Shown piece after piece: positions 666 to 61,627 of a DNA stretch of 64,000 nucleotides. This stretch comes from Octopus vulgaris. Lineage: Eukaryota. A program made the position numbers and the translations under genes. The stretch's first letter is position 1, and each line of letters opens with the position of its first letter. Below the pieces are notes generated by a model. It saw nothing but the letters and a program-made list of their open reading frames with translations. It made no database searches and was not told the DNA's origin. The stretch lies in the NCBI GenBank assembly GCA_951406725.2, contig OX597819.1, forward strand, positions 133,114,001 through 133,178,000, in the 5' to 3' direction.

Positions 666-1066
666 AGGCGGCGAGCTGGTAGAATCGTTAGCACGCCGGG
701 CGAAATGCTTTGTGGTATTTCGTCTGCCGTTATGTTCTGAGTTCAAATTCCGCCGAGGTCGACTTTGCCTTTCATCCTTTCGGAGGTCGATAAATTAAGT
801 ACCAGTTACGCACTGGGGTCGATATAATCGACTTAATCCGTTTGACTCTCCTTGTTTGTTTTCTCTGTGATTAGCCCCTTGTGGGTAGTAAAGAAATAGG
901 TATTTCGTCTGTCTTTACGTTCTGAGTTCACATTTCGTCGAAGTCGAATTTGCCTTTGATCCTTTCGGAGGTCGATAAATTTAGTACCAGTTGCGTACTG
1001 GGGTCGATCTAATCAACTGCCCCCTGCCCCAAGTTTTCGTGCCTTGTGCTTTGATTAGAAAAGAAT
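666..1066 (+). mobile_element. tRNA-derived SINE, dimeric/nested form
   Basis: A-box-like head AGGCGGCGAGCTGGTAGAATCGTTAG, B-box-like GAGTTCAAATTCC, body GCCTTTCATCCTTTCGGAGGTCGATAAATTAAGTACCAG present twice. GGTATTTCGTCTG is repeated at 714-726 and 899-911. Homologous copies occur elsewhere in the window. Confidence 0.85.
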
Positions 1067-2059: not shown

Positions 2060-2418
2060 TATAATGTATGTGTGTTGCTAATACACATACGTACACACAC
2101 ACATACATACACGCACACGCATATATATATATATATATGTTGTTTTTTTAAAATTATTGTTAAGCATCGGATTTTCATGCGCAGCATCAGTGATGGTTTT
2201 CTTTTTGTTGTCTGAGTATTGTCCCCTTCCTTCTCTCGTTAGGAAAACTGGCGATTCTCACGGAAAAGCAGCCATAACAATGAGAGCCTGGTGCTGGGTT
2301 AACATCGACAATCCTGCAAAGCAAATACAAAAGCGGACTCTTTCATCGTACGTCAACATCAATAACAGTTTGCAGGTTTATGCATGCATGTCTGTGCAGA
2401 CATAAAACATACTGATTG

Positions 2419-2493
2419 GTGTTGTTGTTGTTGTTGTTGTTGTTGTTCTTCTTCTTCTTCTTCTTCTTGTTCTTCTTCTTCTTCTTCTTCTTC

Positions 2494-2561
<68 letters not shown>

Positions 2562-2570
2562 AATAATGAT
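2419..2570. repeat. compound microsatellite (GTT)n(CTT)n(AAT)n
   Basis: Read directly; the (AAT)n part abuts the R4/Dong element. Confidence 0.95.
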
Positions 2571-3553
2571 AAGGTGAAAATAATGGCAACGAAAAAAGAG
2601 CACGAGCAATTGGCTGATAGGTGGGAGGAGAAACCTCTGCACGGCAAATATGTGGCCCGCAGCAAACAAGCTGATGTTGACCAGAAGCAAACCCATCAGT
2701 GGCTACGGAGCTCAGGGCTAAAAGCAGCGAGCGAAGGTTTCATCCTGGCTGCTCAAGATCAAAGCTTATTAACCCGGAACTACCAGGCCAATGTGATGAA
2801 AAATGGAGCAGACCCAAAATGCCGATTCTGCAACGACATGATTGAAACAGTGGACCACCAAATCTCTGGATGTAAAGTCTTAGCCCCAGTGGAGTATAAA
2901 TTAAGACATGACAGAGTTGGCCAATATCTACACTGGCTAATAAGTCGGCATTACAATATCAAATCTGCCGACAAGTGGTATAATCACCACCCTGCAGCTG
3001 TAACTGAAGGAGAAAATGTAACGATTCTGTGGGACTTTCCAGTACATACAGACCGAACCATCAAAGCCAATCAACCAGATATTGTTGTGAAAGATTAAAA
3101 CAATAAAGTTTGCTTATTGATCGGCATGAGCATCCCCTGTGATCATAATATCTCGGCGAAAGAGTTTGACAAGCTCAGAAAATATAAAGACCTGCTCATT
3201 GAAATTGAGAAAATGTGGCATCTCAAGGCGGTTACAATACCAGTGATCGTAGGAGCACTAGGAATGATCAAGAAGGGAATCGAAAATTATATGAGAATGA
3301 TCCCTGGCTTACCATCCCTGCAAGAAGTGCAAAAGATTGTCTTAACTGGTACATCACACGTATTGAGAAGAGCATTGTCGATGTGAGAACTATTACCACC
3401 CATGTATTTTAATTTAACTTTTAAAAAAAAAATTGAACGAACTATTGAGTTTAGTTTAATGGCCTACCAATGTATACTATGAGTTTCTCTGCTCTAGTAG
3501 TCTGGAAGACACTCGGCAAGAAATGGAAGCAAATTTGAAAGAAGAAAAAAAAG

Positions 3554-3629: not shown

Positions 3630-6600
3630 AAACAATGTGACAACAGAAATGAACGGACCGGTACCCTACGAAAATGACGACCGTCAAAATAAAGGCCGGA
3701 CGTTGTCCCTCATGTCCCGCAAATGAAATCCAAAAGACATAAATGGACACGTGAGGAATACATTTCTATCCTACATACTTATTTTACAGCAGTGCTCTAC
3801 CCAAAGAATGAAAACACAAAAACACATACATATAAAATATGGAAGGAAAACAACATAAATATAGACTTGGATACAGCAATGAACCCTAACAAACTAGCAA
3901 ATATACGGAGATATATTCTCAACGCAAAAAAAATATCAGAAATAGAAATAGAACATCTAAAAGAAAAAATACATCAGGAAAATGTAGATAGAAGCCAGAC
4001 AACAATGCCCAATAATATAAACACTGAAACAGTAAAACACGAAGACAAATGTTACACGAGAAACAAACATACAAATAAGAAAGAAAACGACACAAATCTA
4101 AAACCTGGAAACAATGAAGGGGAGCCTAATGAATATGATAATATAAAAAGTAGAATAATCAAAGAACTGAAAACCACAGAGCTCAAAATGGACCACCGAC
4201 CATACCTCCCAAAAATCAAAATAGACGAAACAACAACACCAATTATAAACAGCATTAACCTAGCCGTCACGGAACTAATAGCCACTGAAACAAAAAGCGA
4301 TATCACTGAGCTAAATGACTTAGTATACGCAGCAGCCACTGCAGCCACAAAAGAAGCTGGATACTCACTCAAACCCGTCCAAACAGAAGTACCACCACCC
4401 AAACAAACCCTGTGGATAAATAACATCCAAAACAAAATACAAAAAGTAAAAAAAATCTGTCGATTCTCAATGAAATCAGTAGACAATCAACGCTACTGAG
4501 CAACAAAAAGAAAACAAAAATACTCCGCAAACACAACATCACACAAAAATATTTACCTGAGATAAAAGAAAAGCTAAAGCAAGATATCCTTGCCAAAGCA
4601 CAAAGGATCCGCCGGTACGAGAAACGCCAGCGCTTCTTTGAACAAAACAAAAAGTTCTACCAAGAACTTGGCAAAAATAAAATAGAAATCACTGCGGCAC
4701 CAACGGTAGAAGTGGAAGAATTCTGGAGAGAAATATGGTCGGCGAACGAACAACCAAAAAAGAAGAATTTTAAAATAACAAACTCAGCGTCTGAGCAACT
4801 TTGGACCCCCATAACAACTGAAGAGGTCACCCAGGCACTGCAAAGACTATGCAACTGGAAGGCACCTGGGCATGACAAGATCCCCAACTTCTGGTTGAAA
4901 TATCTAACAGGAATGCACAAAAAAACTGTAACAACATACTAGCAGAGCCAGAGACAATGCCTGAATGGCTCACGAAGGGGAAAACCATCTTAATTCCCAA
5001 ATCAAATGAAACAGCAAAACCAGAAAACTACAGACCAATAACCTGTCTTCCTACAATGTACAAGACTTTTACTGCAGTGATATCGCAACGGGTGAACAAG
5101 CACCTGGACGAAAACAACCTGTTTCCAGAAGAGCAGAAAGGATGCCGCAAAGGCTCATACGGCTGTAAAGATCAACTAATGATCAATACAGCCATAACTG
5201 AAGACAGCCACAGAAAGAAGAAAGGCCTCAGTATGGCCTGGATCGACTACGAAAATGCGTTTGATAGAATCCCCCACATATGGATCCTCGAAACACTAGC
5301 CATTAACAAAGTAGCACCAACAATTATAAAATTCATTGGGCACTCTATGAATAAATGGCAAACAGTGCTACAGCTCCAAACAAAAGAGGGACTCATGAAA
5401 ACCAAAGCCATCCCCATTAGAAGAGGAATATTCCAGGGAGACACGCTCTCTCCACTCCTTTTCAGCTTGGCACTGTCACCTCTATCTGATATGCTAAATA
5501 GAACTGGATGCGGATATAAATGTTACGGCAAAACGATCAGCCACCTTTTATATATGGATAACCTAAAACTATACGCTGCAAATGACAAACAGCTGGAAAC
5601 ACTATTAAAGACAGTTCATGGATTTACCAAAGAAATAGATATGAAATTTAGATTAGAAAAATGCGCCAAAGTAACCATGAAAAGAGGAAAACTAGTTAAG
5701 AGTAACAACATCACACTAGATAAAACCAATGAAATAAAAGAATTGGACCAAAGCCAAACTTACAAATACTTAGGAATCCATGAACTAGATAAGACACAAC
5801 ACACACAAATGAAAGAGAAAATAAAAAAAGAATATTATAGACGAGTTAGATCAATACTAAAAACAGAGCTCAATGCTAAAAACAAGATAATAGTTATTAA
5901 CACTTTAGCTGTCCCAGTTATAAGTTACAGCTACAATATCCTTAACTGGACACTAAATGAACTGACCAAAATAGATAGGAAAACAAGAAAAATAATGACA
6001 GGGTCTAGGATGCATCACCCAAAATCTGACATAGAAAGACTATATATACAACGTATAGAAGGTGGTAGAGGCCTTATACAGCTGGTAAACTACTATAAAA
6101 TAACCACCATAGGACTGCAAAAATATCTACTTCAGAAGGAAGGAAAACTGATCCAGATAGCAGCAAAACACGAGCAAAACAAAAAACTGTTGTCAGTATT
6201 TAAGGAAGCTGACAAATACAAACAAGAAATCATACCACTTAACAAATATAAAGAAGAAGAAGAAGAAGAAGAAGAAAAAGAAGAAGAAGAAGAAGAAGAA
6301 GAAGAAGAAGAAGAAGAAGAAGAAGAAGAAGAAAAAACAAAAGCTATAAAACAAATGAAATCCAAACTAAAACTAGAACAGCAAAGAACCATGATAAAAC
6401 GATGGCAAGAAAAACCCCTTCACGGTAAATACTGGACTAAACTAAATGCAAAAGAAATAGACAAAGAAAAATCCCAGCAATGGTTGAGAAGCTCAGGACT
6501 CAAAGCAGAGTCAGAGGGATTTTTAATTGCAGCACAAGACCAAAGCCTCCCCACCAGAAATTGCCAAAAACATGTAATGAAAAGAAATATTACAAGTAAC

Positions 6601-7230
6601 TGCAGAGTATGTGGAGATGGACAAGAAACAATAAATCATATTATCTCTAGCTGCCCAGTCCTGGCTAAGAAGGAATATATTCACAGACGTGACAGAGTTG
6701 GAACCTACATACACTGGAGGCTATGCCAACATTATGGAATAACAACAGAAAAAAGATGTTAGGCACACACCAGAAAAGGTCACAGAAAACGAAAAAGCAA
6801 CCATACTTTGGGATATGCCGATACACACAGATAGAGAAATTAAGGCCAACAGACCAGATATAGTTGTCAGAGATCATGAAGAAAAAAAATGCTTTCTAAT
6901 TGATGTATCAATACCGGAAGATGACAACGTGTCTCTAAAAGAAATGGAGAAACTCTCAAAATACAAAGACCTGGAAATGGAGGTAACCAGAATGTGGAAT
7001 CTAAAAACAGAAACAATTCCTATCATAGTAGGTGCATTACGCATGATAAAAAAATATTCAGACAAATACATAACAAAAACACCAGGACTACATGGCATTG
7101 CACACATCCTACGCAGAACACTTTCCATACAATAACCATCAGAGCATCACAACAAATCACAGCACATACCCAAGGCACACAGAGCTGCGCTCGGTAGTGA
7201 AGTGAAAGCACGCTATAAAAAATAAAACTC
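3630..7230 (+). mobile_element. near full-length, disrupted R4/Dong-clade non-LTR retrotransposon, copy 2
   Basis: Colinear fragments 3723-4499, 4712-4942 (NWKAPGHD), 4957-6762 (RT: YRPITCL, QGDTLSP, YMDNLKLY; CCHC) and 6815-7135 (RPDIVV...IDVSIP...KLSKY). Preceded by (AAT)n. Confidence 0.92.
4957..6762 (+). pseudogene. reverse transcriptase ORF fragment of the R4/Dong element
   Basis: RT motifs present, but catalytic YMDD reads YMDN. Stops at 4942 and 6762. In-frame (GAA)n poly-Glu expansion at about 6251-6333. Confidence 0.85.
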
Positions 7231-9239: not shown

Positions 9240-10481
9240 GTGTGTGTGATTGTGTATAGAAGAATATATTAATAAAAAGAATTCCAACCTTGTCTGATTT
9301 TCACGTTTTATTTACAATCTTATAATGATATATTATAAGATAATATATTATAATTGAATAAAATAAAATGAAATAGTAGAATGTTAAATATTCATTCTGA
9401 TTGAACTAGTACTTTCATGCATTGAATTCTGCAATCTTCGGGTTCATGTAGTAGTGTTGACAGTCATGCTTCACAATTTTTGACTGTAGCAAGATAGTGA
9501 TTCTGTGCTATAAATACAGCTGGGTAGGCTCCAGAGTGCTAGGTTTTGCAAACTGTATTCTGACCAATCAGTGTGTAGTATCACTCAATTACTTAAGCTG
9601 ATTGGTTGGTTGAGCTGATTGGTTTAGGCATCACGCTTTGTTGGACAGGTCAAGAGTCCTGTATCTTGACCCTGGCCAAGCAGCAATTGTTGGGTTATTT
9701 TTAGAAATGTTGTAAATATCCTTTGTCAGAGATTTTTATATTTTTATATTTCAATTGTCATCATCATCATTGTCAGCACCTTAATTATTGTTGCTAGTGG
9801 TGATGGTGGTGGCAATAGAACTTTTAACCCTAAATAAGATAATTTTCCTGCTATCTTCGTCTTGATCACCTTTATATTGTTGTTGTTGTTAGTGGTCATG
9901 GTCGTAGCAGTGGATAATACCTCTAAGTATTATTATTATTGCTTATTTAGCTTGGGTTCGAATTTATCAATAAAATTCTTTTCTCTGATTTTCCTCTCGA
10001 TTTCACTTGGGCTGTGTAATTTGTAGAATGGAAATATTATATATATTTTCCGACCACATGTTGCTAGGTGGTTACTCAAAGGTATCTGACGGACCTCTGG
10101 GTCTCTAATCTGTTGCCGGTGTACACGTGAGCGTTCTAATAGTGCGTTTCCCGTCTGACCTACATATATTTCTTCACAATTTGGGCATTTGATGCAGTAA
10201 ATTAAATTTCTGCTTTTGCAGTTCATATTCGCGTTTGTGAATATTTTCCGGTTTTTGTGTTTATATATTGACCGGTATGTATGAATTGGCATGTGCCACA
10301 TCGGCTATCATTGCATTTAGATACCGTGAATGTTTGGTCTTTGTTGCTGAGGTCAAATTTTGCCTTTGTTAGTAATGTTTTCAAGTTTTTAGGCTGTCTT
10401 TTACTAAGCACCATAGCTCGATCCTTGATTATGTCTTTTAATTCATTACTTTGGGCAATGATTGGTAGGTTTGCTTTGGCA

Positions 10482-15539: not shown

Positions 15540-17022
15540 CATGACAGAATGTCTGGCCGGGTCATCGCCAAGAAAGCTCTCCCCGTTTCATTTCCAATTA
15601 TGACTGGTTCGCAGCAAAGATACGTCTCCCTCTCCTTCAATGAAGTGTTCAACGAGATCCCCGGTCAAGCTCCTGGTGTAGACATCCGCTACAAAATGGA
15701 CGGAAGACTTTTCAACACAACCCATCTCAGAGCCCGTCAACCTACCAATTTGGCCAAAGAACATCAGCTGCAGGACGCTGATGACAATGCCACTCTGGCG
15801 CACTCAGTTTCCGGTTTTTACGAGTTTGTGAACTAATTCGAAAATTTGTATACTTGCTTTAATTTGATCACAAAAACATAATGAAGACGACGATCCTTGC
15901 ACAGGGATCCACCGGACAATCTCCCCCTAACACCAGTGGCATAACGGTACAGGAGACTGTCCTGGAAACCGTGGAATCTTTCCTATACCTCGGGAGCTAC
16001 ATGTCCAGCGATTGCACCATTCGGAACGATATCGAGAATAGGATCAGTGCAGCCCATACTGCTCAAAATACCCTCAAAATGAAAGTCTCTTACTAAACCA
16101 CGACCTCACGCTCCAAACAAAAGTCATGCTATTCCGAGCCGTCGTCCTTTTCGCTCTCCTCTACGGCTGTGAGATGTCGATATTGTATCTGCGAGACTTG
16201 AAGAAAATGAAACGTTTCCAACAGTACAGACTTCATGCAATTAAGAGGATTCGATGGAAAGTCTATACATCAATAAAGAGGTTCTGTTCGATGCTGGACT
16301 GCCCAACATTGAGGCCACTGTGGTTCGACATCGTCCCCTGCTTGTCCGGACACACCATACGTATGCCTCAAACGTGCCGTCCCGTCAACTCGTCTTTGCC
16401 ACGTTGGATTTAGGCACCAGATCATGGAGATCCCCAAAATTCTATCCCGAGACCAGTTCAAGTTCACTTGCGTCCGCTGCTCCAAATGTCTGGGAGATAA
16501 CCGCCAAGGAGCGCCCTACGGGGCGGCATGTCTAGGGAAAAGACCTGGTGGAAAATAACTCTTTTCTATTCTAGGCACAAGGCCCGACATTTCAGGGAGG
16601 TGGGGGCCAATCGATTAGATTGACCCCAGTACGCAACTGGTACTTAATTTTTAGACACCGAAAGGATGAAAGGTAAAGCCGACCTCAGCGGAATTTGAAC
16701 TCAGAACGTAAAGACAGACAAAGTATCGCTAAGAATTTCGCCCAGCGTGCTAACGATTCTGTCAGCTTACCGCCTTAACCTGGTGGAAAATAATAACAGA
16801 CATGAAGAGGCACAGATGAGACGTCGAAGACAAACTAAGAGTAACTCGTACTTCCTCGTCTCCAACCAATTCTCCCCCGCGATAGATGCTCCTGGATCTT
16901 CTACACCACCTTTGGTCTGTAGAGCCACCTCAGGCATCAGTGCCTTTCGCATCCATCAAGATGAATAGGCTCAATCAACAGCTACAGGTATATTACACGG
17001 AAACGAGTTAACGTCGACGTCA
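15540..17022 (+). mobile_element. degenerate RTE (BovB-like) LINE, 3' half
   Basis: Fragments GVDIRYKMDGRLFN, LQDADDNATLAHS, ETVESFLYLGS...IENRISAA and RAVVLFALLYGCE; many frameshifts; interrupted by a SINE. Confidence 0.82.
16559..16777 (-). mobile_element. monomeric tRNA-derived SINE inserted in the RTE, 16-bp TSD
   Basis: Reverse-complement homologue of the SINE at 666. TSD ACCTGGTGGAAAATAA at 16543-16558 and 16778-16793. Confidence 0.9.
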
Positions 17023-19568: not shown

Positions 19569-19776
19569 TTGAAAGTTTGGCACAAGACCAGAAAATTTGT
19601 GCGGAGGGTGTAGGTCGATTTTATCGCCTCCAGTTCTCAGCTGGTACTTATCAATCCTGAAAGGATGAAAGGAATAATCGACCTCGGGGGAATTTGAACT
19701 CAGATCGTAAAGACGGACGAAATGATGTTAAGCATTTTGCCCGTCGTATTAACGACTCTGCCAATCCACCGCGTTA
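19569..19776 (-). mobile_element. tRNA-derived SINE with 18-bp TSD
   Basis: Same family as 666 and 16559. TSD GAATGACCAAATATTGAC at 19551-19568 and 19777-19794. Confidence 0.9.
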
Positions 19777-19984
19777 GAATGACCAAATATTGACAAAAAT
19801 TAATCTAATTCCTATAAAGCAGAATGAGTTCTTCTGCGACAAATGATCGGCCTCTTGTGAAGGAGATATGACCGGGAGGTGTTGTGTTACGGACCAACCA
19901 CTGTCATATACTTGGATTGAGTGTAAGGCAAGAAAGGCTCGCCAAATGTAACAAATGATGAATTTATGAATTGTATTAAAGACG

Positions 19985-30419: not shown

Positions 30420-30467
30420 TGACTTAAAATTGTATGATAGAACTCTTTGACTGCTATTTCTAAATTC

Positions 30468-30524
<57 letters not shown>

Positions 30525-30544
30525 GCATACATACATATAAATAC

Positions 30545-31828
<1,284 letters not shown>

Positions 31829-40626: not shown

Positions 40627-40840
40627 AATATATGTACAGGTATACACACTTTTACAGGTGGCGGTCAACTATTTTGACTCCAGTTTTAGACTGGAATTCA
40701 TTTGGGAAGAATGAAAAAGTAAATGTTGCAAGGATTCGAACTCAGAATCTCTAAGTTGACGTAATTAAAGCGCCTAAAAGACTTTTCCGCTGACAATCAT
40801 TTTATTGCCATTAAGATATGAATGACAAGCTTGATGAAAA

Positions 40841-41007
40841 TTCCTTTCTGCTCTAGGCACAAAGCTCGAAATTTGTGGGAAGGGGGCCAGTCGATTAGAT
40901 TGACCCCTGTACACAAATGGTACTTAATTTATCAACCCCGAATTGATTAAAGGCATTGTCGACCTCGGCAGAATTTGAACTCAGAACGTAAAGACAGACG
41001 AAATACC
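40841..41007 (-). mobile_element. SINE 3' portion beginning exactly at GGTATTTCGTCTG
   Basis: Reverse complement of 899-1066; the head is replaced by the Tx1-type LINE. Confidence 0.8.
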
Positions 41008-42725
41008 AATTTATTTACTGTCCACCGAGGGCCAAACATAGAAATGGACAGAACAACTGATGGGATCAGTAAAGCGATGATTTTACATATAATGTGACTT
41101 TAAAAATTTAAATACAACATAAAAAGATCGAAAGAAATTAACAATACAAAGACAATACAAAGGAAGCGCTGATCAGGCCACGCTCCGACCCCATAAGCCC
41201 CGATCTATCGCTGGTATCTTTTTTTGCTGTTCTTTTTTTCCGTCTGCTTCACATGGTTCCTTGCACGCACAGCACTCGTGCAACATGCTTCCATTTTTTT
41301 TTAACACACTCCCCGACATGCATCTCTTCTCCAGCCAAACCTTCCTTTTCAAGTGAAAAGTGAAGAACGAGCTTAACTCGTGGCCGGAGATAAAGTTACC
41401 CGTCTTAATCCCTTTTATCTAGTCTTCCATTCTGCCACTTTTGCTATTGCAACAACAGTGAGAAAACAATTCTTGCCTTCATTTGTTAAAAATTCCGGTG
41501 GGTCAATTTTTTATAATGTACCCAGTCGAAAGTTGTACTCTTTCTTCGCCGGACAACAGGTGTTCAGCATAAACCCACATTTCAGATATCTCCGGGCACT
41601 GGAAAATAGTGTGAGGGACGGTTTCCCTATCCACCCCACTGCATCTTGGACAGGAGGGTAAGACTTTCCATGTCTTGCGAGTTTATCCCAAACGAACAAA
41701 GCGCCTCTGTAACATTGCCAGGTCAAGAACTTTTGGAAATTGTCCAACGTTCTCAACCTGAATGTACGGTGGAACAAGCTATCGAGTTGAATATACCCGA
41801 GACCTAGAGTCGCACCCAGGCCATCGTCACATTCAGACTCTACCAACCCACTATATAAAAAACGTGTAAAACCCCCACCACTGGCGTTGCTCGAGCGTCG
41901 GAAGAGCAGGAGGGCCTTGCGACACTCCATATGCCACTTACTCGACCTCGGTCTACTAGAACACCAGGCTTCCTGTTTGCAAAATCTTTTGATCTCGGGG
42001 AACATTTGTCTGGCTAACGGAGACCACACCCGTTCACCATCCAGGAGAATCCAGATATGCCCCAACCTCAACGCATGCCTGCGCATCATTAACCAAGGCA
42101 TCCCTAAATCTCCCTTTCACGGCTTCTGACAACAGATAGAGCGTCTCACAAGTGGTGACTTGCCCTTCCACAAAAAGCGAAAGAGCTGCCTCTCCAACCT
42201 GATCACCCATCAAGCACATAGGGAATTCTTGGTATTCTAACCTTAGACGTTCTCATCCCTATGTAAATTGGGATTAATATTGTCTTCCGACTCTAATAAT
42301 TTTACTGAGTGTTGTTGTGCCATTTCTGCGTTCTTGAACCTCACCACGATGGTTCCAAACTTCTTCCCTCTGGCTAGGTATGTAATGTCCTGCCAGATGG
42401 GTTTTAAACACTTTTCAATTTTTTGCTCACATATCTTATCAATTTCGCGAGCTTTTAAGCAGAATGTCTTAAAAATAATAATTTCCACTTTTACCACTTC
42501 ATCTCTTTCTCTTATCATTTCCTAGTATTTTAGTAATTCTTTTTTGCCAGTTGACACCTGTCGTATTCCACTACCATCTACCGATGCAAAACTTTTTCTT
42601 TCTTCATTTTGAATGGTCTTTGCTTCTATATTTCTTTTGGTATCCGTAACTTTTGGTAATGCAGGGAATTCGCTTTTCGAAACATCAGAAACTTTATCAA
42701 AAATCAAACTTTCTATCTTCCTCGC
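41008..42725 (-). mobile_element. internally deleted L1/Tx1-type LINE (probable ORF1 N-terminus joined to ORF2 C-terminus)
   Basis: Minus-strand frames give FRFLWKGKSPLVRRSICCQKP.KGDLGMPWL.MRRHALRL and DNFQKFLTWQCYRGAL.V.DKL.RHG (L1/Tx1 post-RT, zf-RVT-like region). ORFs 42243-42707 look ORF1-like. APE and RT core are absent. Confidence 0.72.
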
Positions 42726-45700
42726 TTCCCGCTCAGTCGATGAATCATAAAATATACATACTTATGATGAGTCATTTCAGTACTGAACATGATTCTCGTT
42801 TAAATGCGATTCGGATGTCTTCCAATTGGAATTCTGTTGTGTCCAGATATGCGTGTGTCGTCAGAACTGTAATGGAGACTATTTGTCACGTGATTGACGG
42901 ATGTAGGTTCTTTAACGTGCGATCATCTTTTATTAGTTTACTTTGTTTCATAGAACCTTGCGTGTCTTACCAAGACAACCTTCAAAAGCCAAAGATTTAA
43001 AGGGACCATCGATATATGTTTATTAAGGTTGATTCTCCTTGCATTCTCCTTTCCAGTTTTGGGTGTCTAATGGGATTCTAAACCTTATGCTTCGGTTTAT
43101 TGACTAAATATTTTCTCCGTGGTGCCCTATCAATCACATTCCATTGCTCTTCTCCAATATTACCTTTTATACCATTCAAGGTAGTCTTTATATGTCTGTT
43201 CTTTTGCAGGACATGATTACTCATCCAGGAGGGACTCTAACATTGTTTCGTTTTGCGTATGAGCTATATAAATTACCCACCTCAGTTTGCTATTTCAGTA
43301 AAGAACTTCTAGTCTTACATTATTCGCTAATTCCAAGACAACCAGCATCACTTATAGTGTTTCTCTCTCTAACAGATACGCTGCATTCGTTAAAGACAGC
43401 TTTGGTAACAACACACCAACTGAGCAATATGCTCTTAATAATGTCCATGGTTCACAGCTACTCAAGAAAATATTTTAAAAGTAGATATTTTAACGTCATT
43501 ATTGCATATATGATTGCAAATCGAATAAAGATTGACATTTGCTATAACTTTACTATGATTTCTAATTTCCGCTTGATAAAGTCATAGTTCAAATCTCAGT
43601 GTAACATGTTACCCATATATTTAAAGGAAGACACCGTCATTCTAAAACCTGCACGAGTCTTTCCACATCAGCGCCAAAAACGAATAACGGGTTTATATAG
43701 ACTCGTCGGGAGGTTAATAACAGTTATGTTTTTATCTTTAAGAATTTTATGCTTTTTCATTGTAAGAACTATATAGCCGTTATTAGCGTACGAGGGCCCC
43801 TTAACGTAAAGTGTGTGACTTAGAATTATGGCGGCCGAGTTTGAATAACATACTAGTAATGCAGTAGCTTATATGTTGCTTTCAGAACAATGTTGGTGAT
43901 TGGAAACAATTATTGTGAAAACTATGTCAAACTGTGGGAGCAGTTATACCACTCTGTTGTACACCACCACTAGTTGGAAACCTATCTAAGCATTCCCCAG
44001 TAACTGCACACTCTCTGATATCACGAAGGAAACACTTGATGAAATGTGTATCTTTGCTTTAAAATTATACACAGCATGTCTTGGTTCACTGAATGAAAAT
44101 CGTTAGTGATATCAATGTAACAATGACTTAGAAAGTGAAAAATTCTTTGCCCAGTCCTTACCGAACTTCCAACGTGTCGTTGCTTCGTCCTCGCGGGAAA
44201 ACCTGTTGGCAGCTAACAAACATATCTTCACATAACCCTATTGAGAATTATTTTTATGAAGACTTTCTCTTTAACGCTTACAAAAGAAGAACCTCAAGAA
44301 CTGTCGCAATTGTTTTTACCACCTTTTCTTTTTATACATCACCTGCAGCAACGTATCTCTCCAAACTTGAGGAGCTGTACCATTTATCCTCAGATTATAT
44401 ATTTAAGTATAAGATTAATCAGAAGATCCAGCACCTCTTTTTTTTTAATCTAAGCACTTCAACAGGAAAACCATCGATCTCAATGTCATTTACATCTTAA
44501 CGGAAAGTATATGTTTCTTCATTGAAAATACATAACAAAAGATGTATTTCATTGGAACTCTTTGAGTGCCTTCTAAATTGGACCAAATCTTATTGAGCAT
44601 CAGTAATTGAGCAGATCCCTTTAAAAGTTATTGAGGGATCTTTCTCGAATATTTGCCTGCGTTGGTCCTAATGGTTGCTCAGGAAATTGAATGAATAGCA
44701 TAAACTTGATTTATAAGAGAGTAGATCGCCATAATATCCTACAAGTTATTTACTTTCAAAAGATCACAGCTACGCTCAATCCGTCACATATTTTCCATGT
44801 TTCTCATTGCTTTTTGAATCTTTGACTTAACAGTTTAATATTGAATCAATAGATTTTCGTTTTGATCGATTCGTTTACGTTGCTCTCGTTGCAAAACGAT
44901 AATAATCTTTGTGTATGCTTATTATTATCGTCAATCTAGTCCTTGCATTTGAACTTTGTAACCCTGAATAGTTCTTTTGAACTTTAGTAAAACTATTTTT
45001 TGCCCGCCACACCATATTAACAATATGCACACGCGAATTAAAACCTTCCACGAACTCTTTTCTGACACACTTTTCCTTTTATGTTGCAACTTCAAATCTC
45101 TTTTAAGTTGTGAGAATTTTGTTTTCTAATTTGTTTTACTTTGAACGTTGATTTAGTTTGTAGAAGATTATGATCTGTATTACTATGCTCTACACTCTCT
45201 CTACATATTATATCTTATACACTGCGCCTCTTAAAACCCACACAACTCTCATATCAATGATATCTCTCATTCAACAATGATATAATCAACCAATAGCAAT
45301 TTTCTTGCCATCTGTATACACTGAAGTTCTTTTCTGAATCATTTTATACTAAAAGAGCATATTTTATTTTGTCACTAAATTAAACCAGAGGAATTTGACT
45401 TCTTCCTACCATATCTTAAACAATTCTACAACTCAGTGATTTCACCAACTCCTACGTTGGAATCCCTATAGTTTATTACTTTATTTCCAGCTGGAATTCT
45501 TCAAATATTGTCTCTTAATAACTCATAAGTAAATATTTCGTCTTCTTCACAAACAGACGTTTGAGGCAGACTGAGCGATCGAAAGATAAATACATGCAGA
45601 AAGATGTCAGCCAATAATTTCAGACTGGCAGAACGCCGTAAGAGATTGAACTAGAGTTTATTTAACAGCAAAATTCCTTTCCAGAGTCTTTTCTTAGTTT

Positions 45701-55130: not shown

Positions 55131-56643
55131 CTTAGATAAACTTAGATATGTTTCGACCAAAGATTGGTAGAGGCCATGTCTAACTTAATAGCATTACCTG
55201 ATAGGATTATTCGAATCCTGTTTAAGTCAAGTTTTGTTCAAGTAGTGAGTTCTTGTTGGGTGAGTTGTATCCAATTATGGGTGGCTTATCTGGTATTCTT
55301 TGAAGGAATCTATCTAGACTCCGTTTAAAGTTGATGGGATCCTCTTCCTCTTTGATCTCCATCGGGACAATGTTAAATAGGGCAGGGCCTGTTGAGGAAA
55401 TGAAATTATGTTGCAGTGTACATGTATGTTGTGATCTTGAATTGGGCAGGGGACGTAAGGCCCGTGGTCCCAGTCTTGGATGAACCTTGAAGCTAATGTT
55501 TAGGTCGTTTGGGCAAAGTTGGCGGTACATTTTCCACATCGTACAAATGATGTACCGCTCACGGCGACGCTGGAGGGAGTAAAGTTTCAAGGCTTTAAGG
55601 CGATCCCAATAATCGAGAGCAGCCATGCCTTCAATTCGTTTAGTGAGTGCCCTCTGGGGTGACTCAATTCTGGAGGTGTTTTGTCTTGTGTGAGGAGACC
55701 ACAGTGGGCAGCAGTATTCAAGGTGTGGCCGTACAAAGGAGGAAAAAAGTGGTATGATGACACCTTGTTCTCTGGACCGGAAAGTTCTTAAGATCCAGGA
55801 ACTCATCCTACGAGCTATATCGACCTTCTTGTTGATGTGTGCACTCCAACTGAGATCGTCATCAACAATTACACCCAGGTCTCTGATATTGTTAGAGGCT
55901 GTGAGCGGTTCCCCTGAAGGAAGAGAGTATGGTTGTTTTAGTGAGGAATTTCTTCCAAAATGCATCAGCTCAAATTTTCCCTCATTCAGTTGCATTTTGT
56001 TTCTGTCTGCCCATTGACTCACAGCATATAGATCAGACTGGAGTTGAGTTCGGTCTGCTTCTTCATTGACAATTTGTTGGAGCTTAGTGTCATCAGCAAA
56101 TATTTTCACTTTGCAGTTAATGTACGACACTGGAAAGGTCGTTTACGTAAATTATGAAGAGTAGCGGACCCAAAACAGTTCCCTGGGGAACACCGCTGGT
56201 GACTTTTGCTGGATTTGAGTGGACTCCATCAACTACAACATGTTGTGTTCTATTCGCCAGGAAATACTTAATCCAGTGTAGAACTTTTCCACGGATTCCA
56301 ACATTTGCCAATTTTGAGAGTAGGATATTATGGTCTACCGTGTCGAACGCTTTACTGAAGTCAAGATATATGACGTCAGAGTTCGAACCTGTTCCCAAGG
56401 CTTTGAGTACATCTTCAATGTGGTGTAAGAGCTGTGTTAGACAGTCCCTGCCACAGCGAAAGCCATGCTGATTTGGATTTAGGAGTTTGTGGGTCTCCAG
56501 GAAGTCAGCCATCCTTGATCTTAACACTCTTTCAAACACTTTAATGATATGGGAGGTGAGTGAGATAGTTGACTGCGAGGGATCTGTTTGAAAACCGGGA
56601 TGACCGACTGGGATAGAAACTGTTTCGGTATATAACCTGCGTC
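55128..56643 (-). mobile_element. 5'-truncated CR1-group LINE (RT to 3' end)
   Basis: [40 protein letters not shown] and FADDTKL motifs (ORFs 56117-56824 and 55222-56130, frameshift near 56125). (TATCTAAGTT)2 tail; bounded by (TA)n. Confidence 0.92.
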
Positions 56644-56646
56644 TAT

Positions 56647-57443
<797 letters not shown>

Positions 57444-60217: not shown

Positions 60218-60945
<728 letters not shown>

Positions 60946-61627
60946 GTATGTCACCCTGAATAAATGTAGTTTAGACTACTTTCAAAAGGAACTGCTTCGG
61001 GTACAATTTGGCTTCTTGGGAGTTCTCTCAACCGATGCAGATTTGCAACACAGCAGCCGCTCAGTATTTCACTTCCAATGACGTGGAAAACTTCAAAATT
61101 GCAACAGATTTCTGTTATTCTGCGAATAAAAATACAAGAAAAGTGGAACTATGTCAATATCACTAAACAGCTACAACTCATACTGCACAACACTCACACA
61201 AAACGTAGAACTATAAAAATAGAGACATAGAGAGCAAAGCTTGAATTTGAATAAATTCCCTGAAACCTGTTCTTAGAAATTGCTCAAAACAAAATGAATT
61301 AATGAAACACGACTTTCATGTCATCAGCAAAAGATGATCTAGATCTATTACTGATTACGATTAACTCCAGTGTCAACTACAGCATGGACCACTGCAAAGG
61401 AATTTCTTAAAATATTACAAGTAGTGAAGCAATCTCAACAATCATTCATCATCGATCTACCGAACCGGAAGTTTCGAGCATTTACAGGATGCTGCAAAAA
61501 AAAAAAAAACCCGCAAAGGAAAGGGAAAAAAAATTACTTTCACTGTTCTTGATAAACATTTCACAGCGAAGTTGTACGCTGGTTGAAACCACAATGGCAA
61601 CTGAATAAAGAAAAAACCCATAAAACA

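Follow-up and report, generated by a model that had tools for sequence, protein, structure and literature searches.

The window analysed here, a stretch of 64,000 nucleotides of Octopus vulgaris DNA (contig OX597819.1, positions 133,114,001 to 133,178,000 of the forward strand), contains a broken LINE copy that runs directly into the body of a SINE, together with further copies of this SINE and fragments of other retroelements (Table 1). Read along the minus strand, the LINE terminates (3′ end) at 41008 and GGTATTTCG follows with its first base at 41007, which bears out the gapless junction of the original prediction. The extent proposed for the element, 40841 to 42725, stood for the SINE remnant, which reaches ~40840 in plus-strand numbering, but not for the LINE, whose 5′ end on the minus strand is at 42746. 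A missing SINE head had also been reported, and indeed piece 1 starts without 5′ UTR and with neither a SINE head nor a 5′ copy of the target duplication; we infer that the 5′ junction of the window copy was lost by a later deletion. A further ~3 kb is deleted between the two pieces. In four DNA-type sequencing runs, the LINE family was present under four organism codes, and the 5′ junction of the window copy was bridged in X3 and X4.

Table 1: Retroelement features of the window, with positions counted from its first nucleotide.
Feature	Position	Strand	Remarks
Full-length SINE	667..898	+	A/B-box-like head, intact target at 714, LINE-like tail (~838-898)
Second SINE unit, headless	899..1066	+	start lies at the same target position; 898/899 joins SINE to SINE
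Broken RT-encoding LINE	2406..3098 and 3693..7135	+	C-terminal restriction-like motif; presumably Dong/R4-like
GIY-YIG-like frame	9936..10304	-	presumably Penelope-like
SINE, uninterrupted	16560..16777	-	target at 16727 empty, diverged
Older SINE, uninterrupted	19580..19777	-	target at 19726 empty, diverged
GIY-YIG-like frame	30441..30980	+	presumably Penelope-like
Headless SINE, recipient of the insertion	40840..41007	-	B-box motif, body, non-Tx1 tail type
Target site GGTATTTCGTCTG	40995..41007	-	3′ copy of the duplication; 5′ copy lost in the window
LINE 3′ tail	41008..41060	-	without poly(A); the SINE and sister LINE families have a similar tail
LINE piece 2	41009..42209	-	C-terminal ORF2 (zf-RVT region, frameshifted) and 3′ UTR; family positions ~3779-4985; 88% to family
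LINE piece 1	42222..42746	-	start of ORF1, family positions ~203-765, stops break the frame; 84% to family majority sequence
RT fragments	55222..56878 and 60289..60975	-	presumably CR1-like

In the intact SINE at 667–898 the target site lies ~48 nt from the start. As predicted, this position falls between the two promoter boxes, that is, between what we take to be an A-box-like motif at 677–691 and a B-box motif at 741–751, both assigned by eye. The fold of the SINE head is not a cloverleaf, the two motifs being visible by eye only, and neither ARAGORN nor Rfam yielded a tRNA match for the SINE head in the window. The junction at 898/899 had been taken for a second, independent LINE insertion. 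This was rejected, as the preceding sequence is the tail of the full-length SINE, whose last ~45–60 nt resemble the LINE tail, and the junction is one of a SINE within a SINE. The tail end GAAATA and the TATTTC of the target are reverse complements, resulting in a short palindrome at 898–907 and at all SINE-in-SINE junctions. This might be due to chance, since sister families with other targets share the tail end.

Identity of the LINE family

Full-length copies of the family measure ~5 kb. Features of the L1 group were found: an ORF2 with APE endonuclease, RT and C-terminal zinc-binding region, duplications of 10–20 bp in several copies, and 5′ truncation at 47 of 65 loci. Frames of one copy (L074) matched RVT_1 with 44.7 bits and zf-RVT with 29.3 bits, both above the Pfam cut-offs. 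The best solved relative was human L1 ORF2, of which residues 109–600 were matched by a frame of L082 (E 4e-26), compared to only E 0.002 for R2; the same frame weakly matched L1 endonuclease chains. The homologues carry PF03372, PF00078 and PF13966, the named ones originating from Octopus sinensis and Argonauta, and the window frame 41511–42116 shares 51% identity across 151 aa with an RT/zf-RVT protein of Argonauta. All copies examined were broken, with no intact, active copy among them, and the median identity of their 3′ segments with the family majority sequence is 93%.

For the Tx1 clade, passages of PMC5203782 describe an ORF1 with RRM or CCHC zinc knuckle. In the LINE frames no RRM was detected with Pfam, and the zf-CCHC match in ORF1 (E 0.004, 17.6 bits) was obtained from one broken frame and stayed under the cut-off of 20.8. 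No Tx1-named protein was among the homologues returned, so that the label ‘Tx1’ is based on architecture, target specificity and the absence of poly(A) rather than on phylogeny. A sequence-specific target, a trait common in this clade but not exclusive to it, was observed at 49 of 59 3′ ends and at all 30 5′ ends described below. Judged from these sequence features, the LINE belongs to the L1 group and is likely a member of the Tx1 clade.

Insertion sites of the LINE and its sisters

Copies were gathered with queries consisting of LINE sequence only, a 269-nt piece (40 matches) and a 26-mer (39 exact matches), and one further copy was added; the sample thus represents the best-scoring or exact-match copies rather than a full census. 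The 3′ end was scored at 65 loci, of which 59 were independent after six duplicates had been dropped (L088, L083 and four of L104, L106, L107, L108 and L109). At 49 of the 59 the LINE ends exactly at the SINE site GGTATTTCG; 47 of these calls were made by script and two (L079 and L114) by eye, with L103 representing a diverged SINE relative. Of the remaining ten, one has lost the junction but continues into SINE body, another abuts a sister LINE at its target-like 5′ end, GGTAT-like sites outside SINEs account for five, and three are of other kinds. The 3′ flanks of other copies are therefore not random. As background, 460 kb of arbitrarily placed regions contained at most 53 SINE target sites among 702 GGTAT (≤7.5%), over which the SINE site is enriched ~11-fold (binomial P 3e-45). 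Scaled to the genome of 2.8 Gb, these 53 sites correspond to ~300,000 SINE target sites. The SINE tails downstream of the 49 insertions were of three types (18, 14 and 6, with 11 unscored).

The terminal segment 41008–41060 might have belonged to a SINE dimer instead of the LINE. It is LINE sequence, because it is present in nearly all copies, including L081, L093 and L117, which are not followed by a SINE. A target-complementary stretch in the 3′ UTR was not detected, with no ungapped match of at least 7 nt in the last 3 kb of the majority sequence. At L074 (opposite strand, ~2040 from the start) and L097 the same tail occurs without the end of ORF2; these may be ORF1-only passengers. In five places (L104 and L106–L109; L137–L141) the LINE 3′ end adjoins the first ~900 nt of a sister LINE, and because four of them share further flank they represent one amplified unit.

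GGTATTTCGT, extended by CTG or ACG or in a decayed form, stands in front of every one of the 30 best LINE 5′ UTR matches, with a SINE head upstream in 18 and a SINE tail in 12. Full-length copies had been expected to show the SINE head and a duplication at the 5′ end, and this expectation was confirmed in 30 of 30 cases in the form of a SINE head or SINE tail with GGTATTTCGT. The 30 ends correspond to ~25 independent events. Six full 5′ ends on two contigs (L221, L226, L229, L238, L243 and L245, within L218–L247) share one upstream flank and represent a multiplied LINE-bearing segment. Duplications with private mutations in both copies were observed at L069 (20 bp), L072 (17 bp), L111 (15 bp) and L082 (13 bp), and off-target duplications at L081, L093 and L117 (16 bp each) and L135 (10 bp). 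Both kinds demonstrate that the site is target DNA.

Approximately two thirds of the 47 5′-truncated loci, the window copy included, have neither a SINE head nor a duplication at the 5′ end. This might plausibly be explained by later deletion, since internal deletions are common (29 of at least 100 bp in 112 kb of LINE) and the loss of ends is symmetric, four out of five copies chosen by their 5′ end having no 3′ end within 8 kb. A 21-nt variant of SINE head plus target has eight exact matches in the genome, and the LINE 5′ end comes next in all eight; it was found only in front of the LINE, in one LINE subfamily. In all four head-variant copies with the 3′ junction in view, the 3′ copy is the ordinary site without the variant. 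The simplest reading of this comparison would be that the donor RNA contained this stretch of the SINE head and that the 5′ junction was provided by it, as PMC4494074 discusses for R2 and SINEU. Movement of LINE-plus-SINE units together was rejected, as no convincing outer duplication was found.

Two sister groups, gathered through neighbours of 70–78% identity and carrying nearly the same tail, were never observed at the SINE site (0 of 30 and 0 of 20). One of them prefers TGGATG, and two copies of the other lie close to the A box, at a second site in the SINE. Among further sisters, whose 5′ ends have diverged, all 27 loci with the 5′ end covered started at target-like sequence (three having been dropped as truncated), 21 of them in SINE context. 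In the group that prefers TGGATG-like sites and has the same kind of tail (L308–L327), four of 20 loci have a downstream sequence in common, which may be a further repeat target or reflect duplications. The second SINE site is AGAAACGTTAG and follows one SINE tail variant (10 of 28 versus 0 of 106); it is occupied by the sister LINE copies L292 and L293 and forms SINE junctions in L062, L089, L090, L095, L110, L112, L150 and L154. Possibly, AGAAACGTTAG marks a second pairing of a LINE with a SINE subfamily.

The SINE as target and likely passenger

The SINE is highly abundant, a 28-mer of its tail having 86,814 exact matches genome-wide. Its last ~45–60 nt align with the end of the LINE and equally with the sister families, with scores of 72 and 63 to site-avoiding sister families versus 59 to the LINE family. 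As the alignment to the sisters is as good or better, the LINE family need not be the driver of the SINE. Solo SINEs with a head are flanked by duplications in 21 of 34 cases (9–23 bp, median 14) versus 2 of 657 shuffled pairs, and the upstream copies mostly start with GGTA, the majority sequence being GGTATT. Among 30 loci chosen for GGTAC downstream, 11 could be scored, eight being SINE body and 11 having no duplication, and GGTA was present in the upstream copy in 11 out of 11; the motif at SINE insertions is therefore target DNA. For these 11 loci a GGTA templated by RNA at the SINE 3′ junction was rejected, barring perfect pairing, as the 5′ duplication copies showed no mismatch at 44 positions.

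The SINE also inserts into its own kind. Whole SINEs with a duplication inside SINE targets were found at L059/L114 (duplication of 24 bp; a LINE stands in front), L117, L124 and L146, and in arbitrary regions 11 of 34 SINE tails are followed by SINE body. The targeting of the SINE is far looser than that of the LINE. Nevertheless, both share a signature of no poly(A), similar duplication length and GGTA at the start of the duplication. These sequence traits argue that the SINE is likely mobilised in trans by the machinery of this LINE or of a sister. It probably also provides the LINE with its landing sites, since the tails are similar and SINEs have inserted at the same spot in SINEs.

Explanations and biological meaning

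Taken together, we consider it probable, and well founded, that the window carries a decayed copy of a ~5 kb L1-group LINE whose family sits at one site in an abundant SINE, that this site is likely nicked by the LINE endonuclease, and that the SINE is likely moved by the same or sister machinery and thus forms a renewing target. The earlier view of an abundant SINE as a self-renewing landing pad is supported by the 3′ and 5′ ends at the SINE site and by the SINE-in-SINE insertions, with the correction made at 898/899. We lean slightly towards a more far-reaching version, a closed loop in which Tx1-like LINE families target one base in the SINE that they mobilise, borrow its head as their 5′ end and split its promoter, and in which the SINE multiplies the target and stacks into itself. 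The LINE family itself, rather than a sister family, would mobilise the SINE. Most likely, an APE nick at GGTATTTCG would start target-primed reverse transcription from the conserved tail, and a second nick 10–20 nt away would lead to the target duplication; each insertion would separate the A and B boxes of the SINE. The LINE RNA would start in or before the SINE head, and the 5′ junction would be rebuilt from the donor. The SINE would be copied in trans with a looser GGTA preference, often landing in its own kind.

Several other explanations have to be weighed. The LINE might be site-specific, but the SINE arrays, which have a period of 184 bp, might arise mainly from multimers or local tandem duplication with sister LINEs as drivers, so that the loop between LINE and SINE would be weak. 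The SINE tail joined to one body variant has 2,638 exact matches versus 734 for the head joined to the variant, although the two patterns differ in length and CpG content, and the tail variant is tied to the following sequence (87 of 106 versus 8 of 28) in a sample enriched for LINE loci. In addition, 6 of 79 adjacent units are at least 96% alike compared to 5 of 600 random pairs, and these near-identical neighbours indicate that some arrays are local duplications. However, adjacent units are in general only slightly closer than random pairs (median identity 0.89 versus 0.87), whole SINEs flanked by duplications lie within SINE targets at the four loci named above, and solo copies show a real GGTA target. 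We therefore regard this explanation as unlikely, though with a real chance of being correct.

Quite improbable, in our estimation, is an origin in which the original target was a tRNA or small RNA gene behind the SINE head, the SINE being by-catch that became the main target by its numbers. Target-specific non-LTR elements do use tRNA and snRNA genes, according to passages of PMC4640811 and PMC4494074, and the site lies within the tRNA-like head. Against this, inspection by eye of the 65 3′ flanks and 30 5′ flanks revealed no recognisable tRNA gene, and the searches with ARAGORN and Rfam were negative for the window SINE. Such an origin would be compatible with the preferred explanation as its history.

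A loose GGTA preference of the LINE, with SINE insertions over-represented through selective removal of the others or through open SINE chromatin, would account for the five of 59 copies at GGTAT-like non-SINE sites and for the SINE itself showing a loose motif only. The enrichment over the GGTAT background argues against it, and since sister groups of comparable length survive at scattered positions (0 of 50 copies at the SINE site), removal of non-SINE insertions is not general; we consider this very improbable. Finally, it is extremely improbable that the SINE body is part of the LINE 3′ end, as a composite element or by 3′ transduction with a junction inherited from one master, since, despite the many truncated copies with no SINE head at the 5′ end and the one subfamily with SINE-head sequence there, three different SINE tail types follow the junction, both duplication copies share private mutations (L069, L072 and L111), the SINE-free copies L081 and L093 have duplications right at the LINE end, and no convincing duplication surrounds LINE-plus-SINE units.

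Parts of the preferred explanation have precedents. R2 uses a restriction-like endonuclease and has a host gene as target. In 28S rDNA, the R2 transcript includes target sequence from upstream, by which the 5′ junction can be shaped (passages of PMC4494074), similar to our reading of the octopus LINE. The piece apparently carried by the octopus donor, as judged from one sequence variant, is a SINE head, whereas the target of R2 belongs to a host gene. Tx1 families are described to target DNA transposons, LTR elements, snRNA genes and microsatellites (passages of PMC4494074 and PMC4640811). Among them, according to passages of PMC4494074, are Tx1L within Tx1D in Xenopus, Tx1-8_Crp and Tx1-4_AMi in LTR elements and Tx1-9_AMi in Harbinger, all of them APE-type LINEs that occupy a defined position within a mobile element present in many copies, like the octopus LINE. 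Those targets are DNA transposons and LTR elements independent of the LINE, whereas the octopus target is a retroposon that likely depends on it.

In crocodilians, too, Tx1-type LINEs of the Tx1-Mar/SINEU system prefer defined sites in another transposon (Kojima 2015, passages of PMC4494074). SINEU, like the octopus SINE, shares the site preference of the LINE and stands in tandem around the duplication, and some crocodilian LINEs carry SINE-like 5′ sequence, as does the octopus LINE subfamily (passages of PMC4494074). The crocodilian target is, however, a third party, a Mariner DNA transposon, whereas in octopus it is one site in the SINE family itself; and those passages of PMC4494074 report that no LINE sharing the SINEU-1 tail was found in crocodilians, whereas the octopus SINE has a recognisable LINE-like tail. 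For octopus genomes, very abundant tRNA-Core and tRNA-Deu SINEs and L1-Tx1 families in repeat annotations are described in passages of PMC13282606 and PMC8967140. The words ‘target’ and ‘nested’ are absent from the main text of PMC13282606, and the passages of both papers do not describe an insertion site. In the open literature, with Repbase, subscription journals and supplements left aside, no described case of a SINE as Tx1 target was found, nor of one that is both target and passenger. Tx1 elements that target other transposons are known, and what appears to be new here is a SINE target that is likely also the passenger.

The sister families, with nearly the same tail and different targets, offer a natural series on how APE endonucleases change specificity, and the question arises why the passenger SINE is looser in its targeting than the LINE. 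Both the 184-bp SINE arrays and a portion of the SINE load in octopus genomes might be accounted for by the LINE–SINE system. If true, a LINE directed at a SINE whose tail is of its own kind would couple the two populations, the success of the SINE creating targets for the LINE, and the usual parasite would become the host site of its own carrier.
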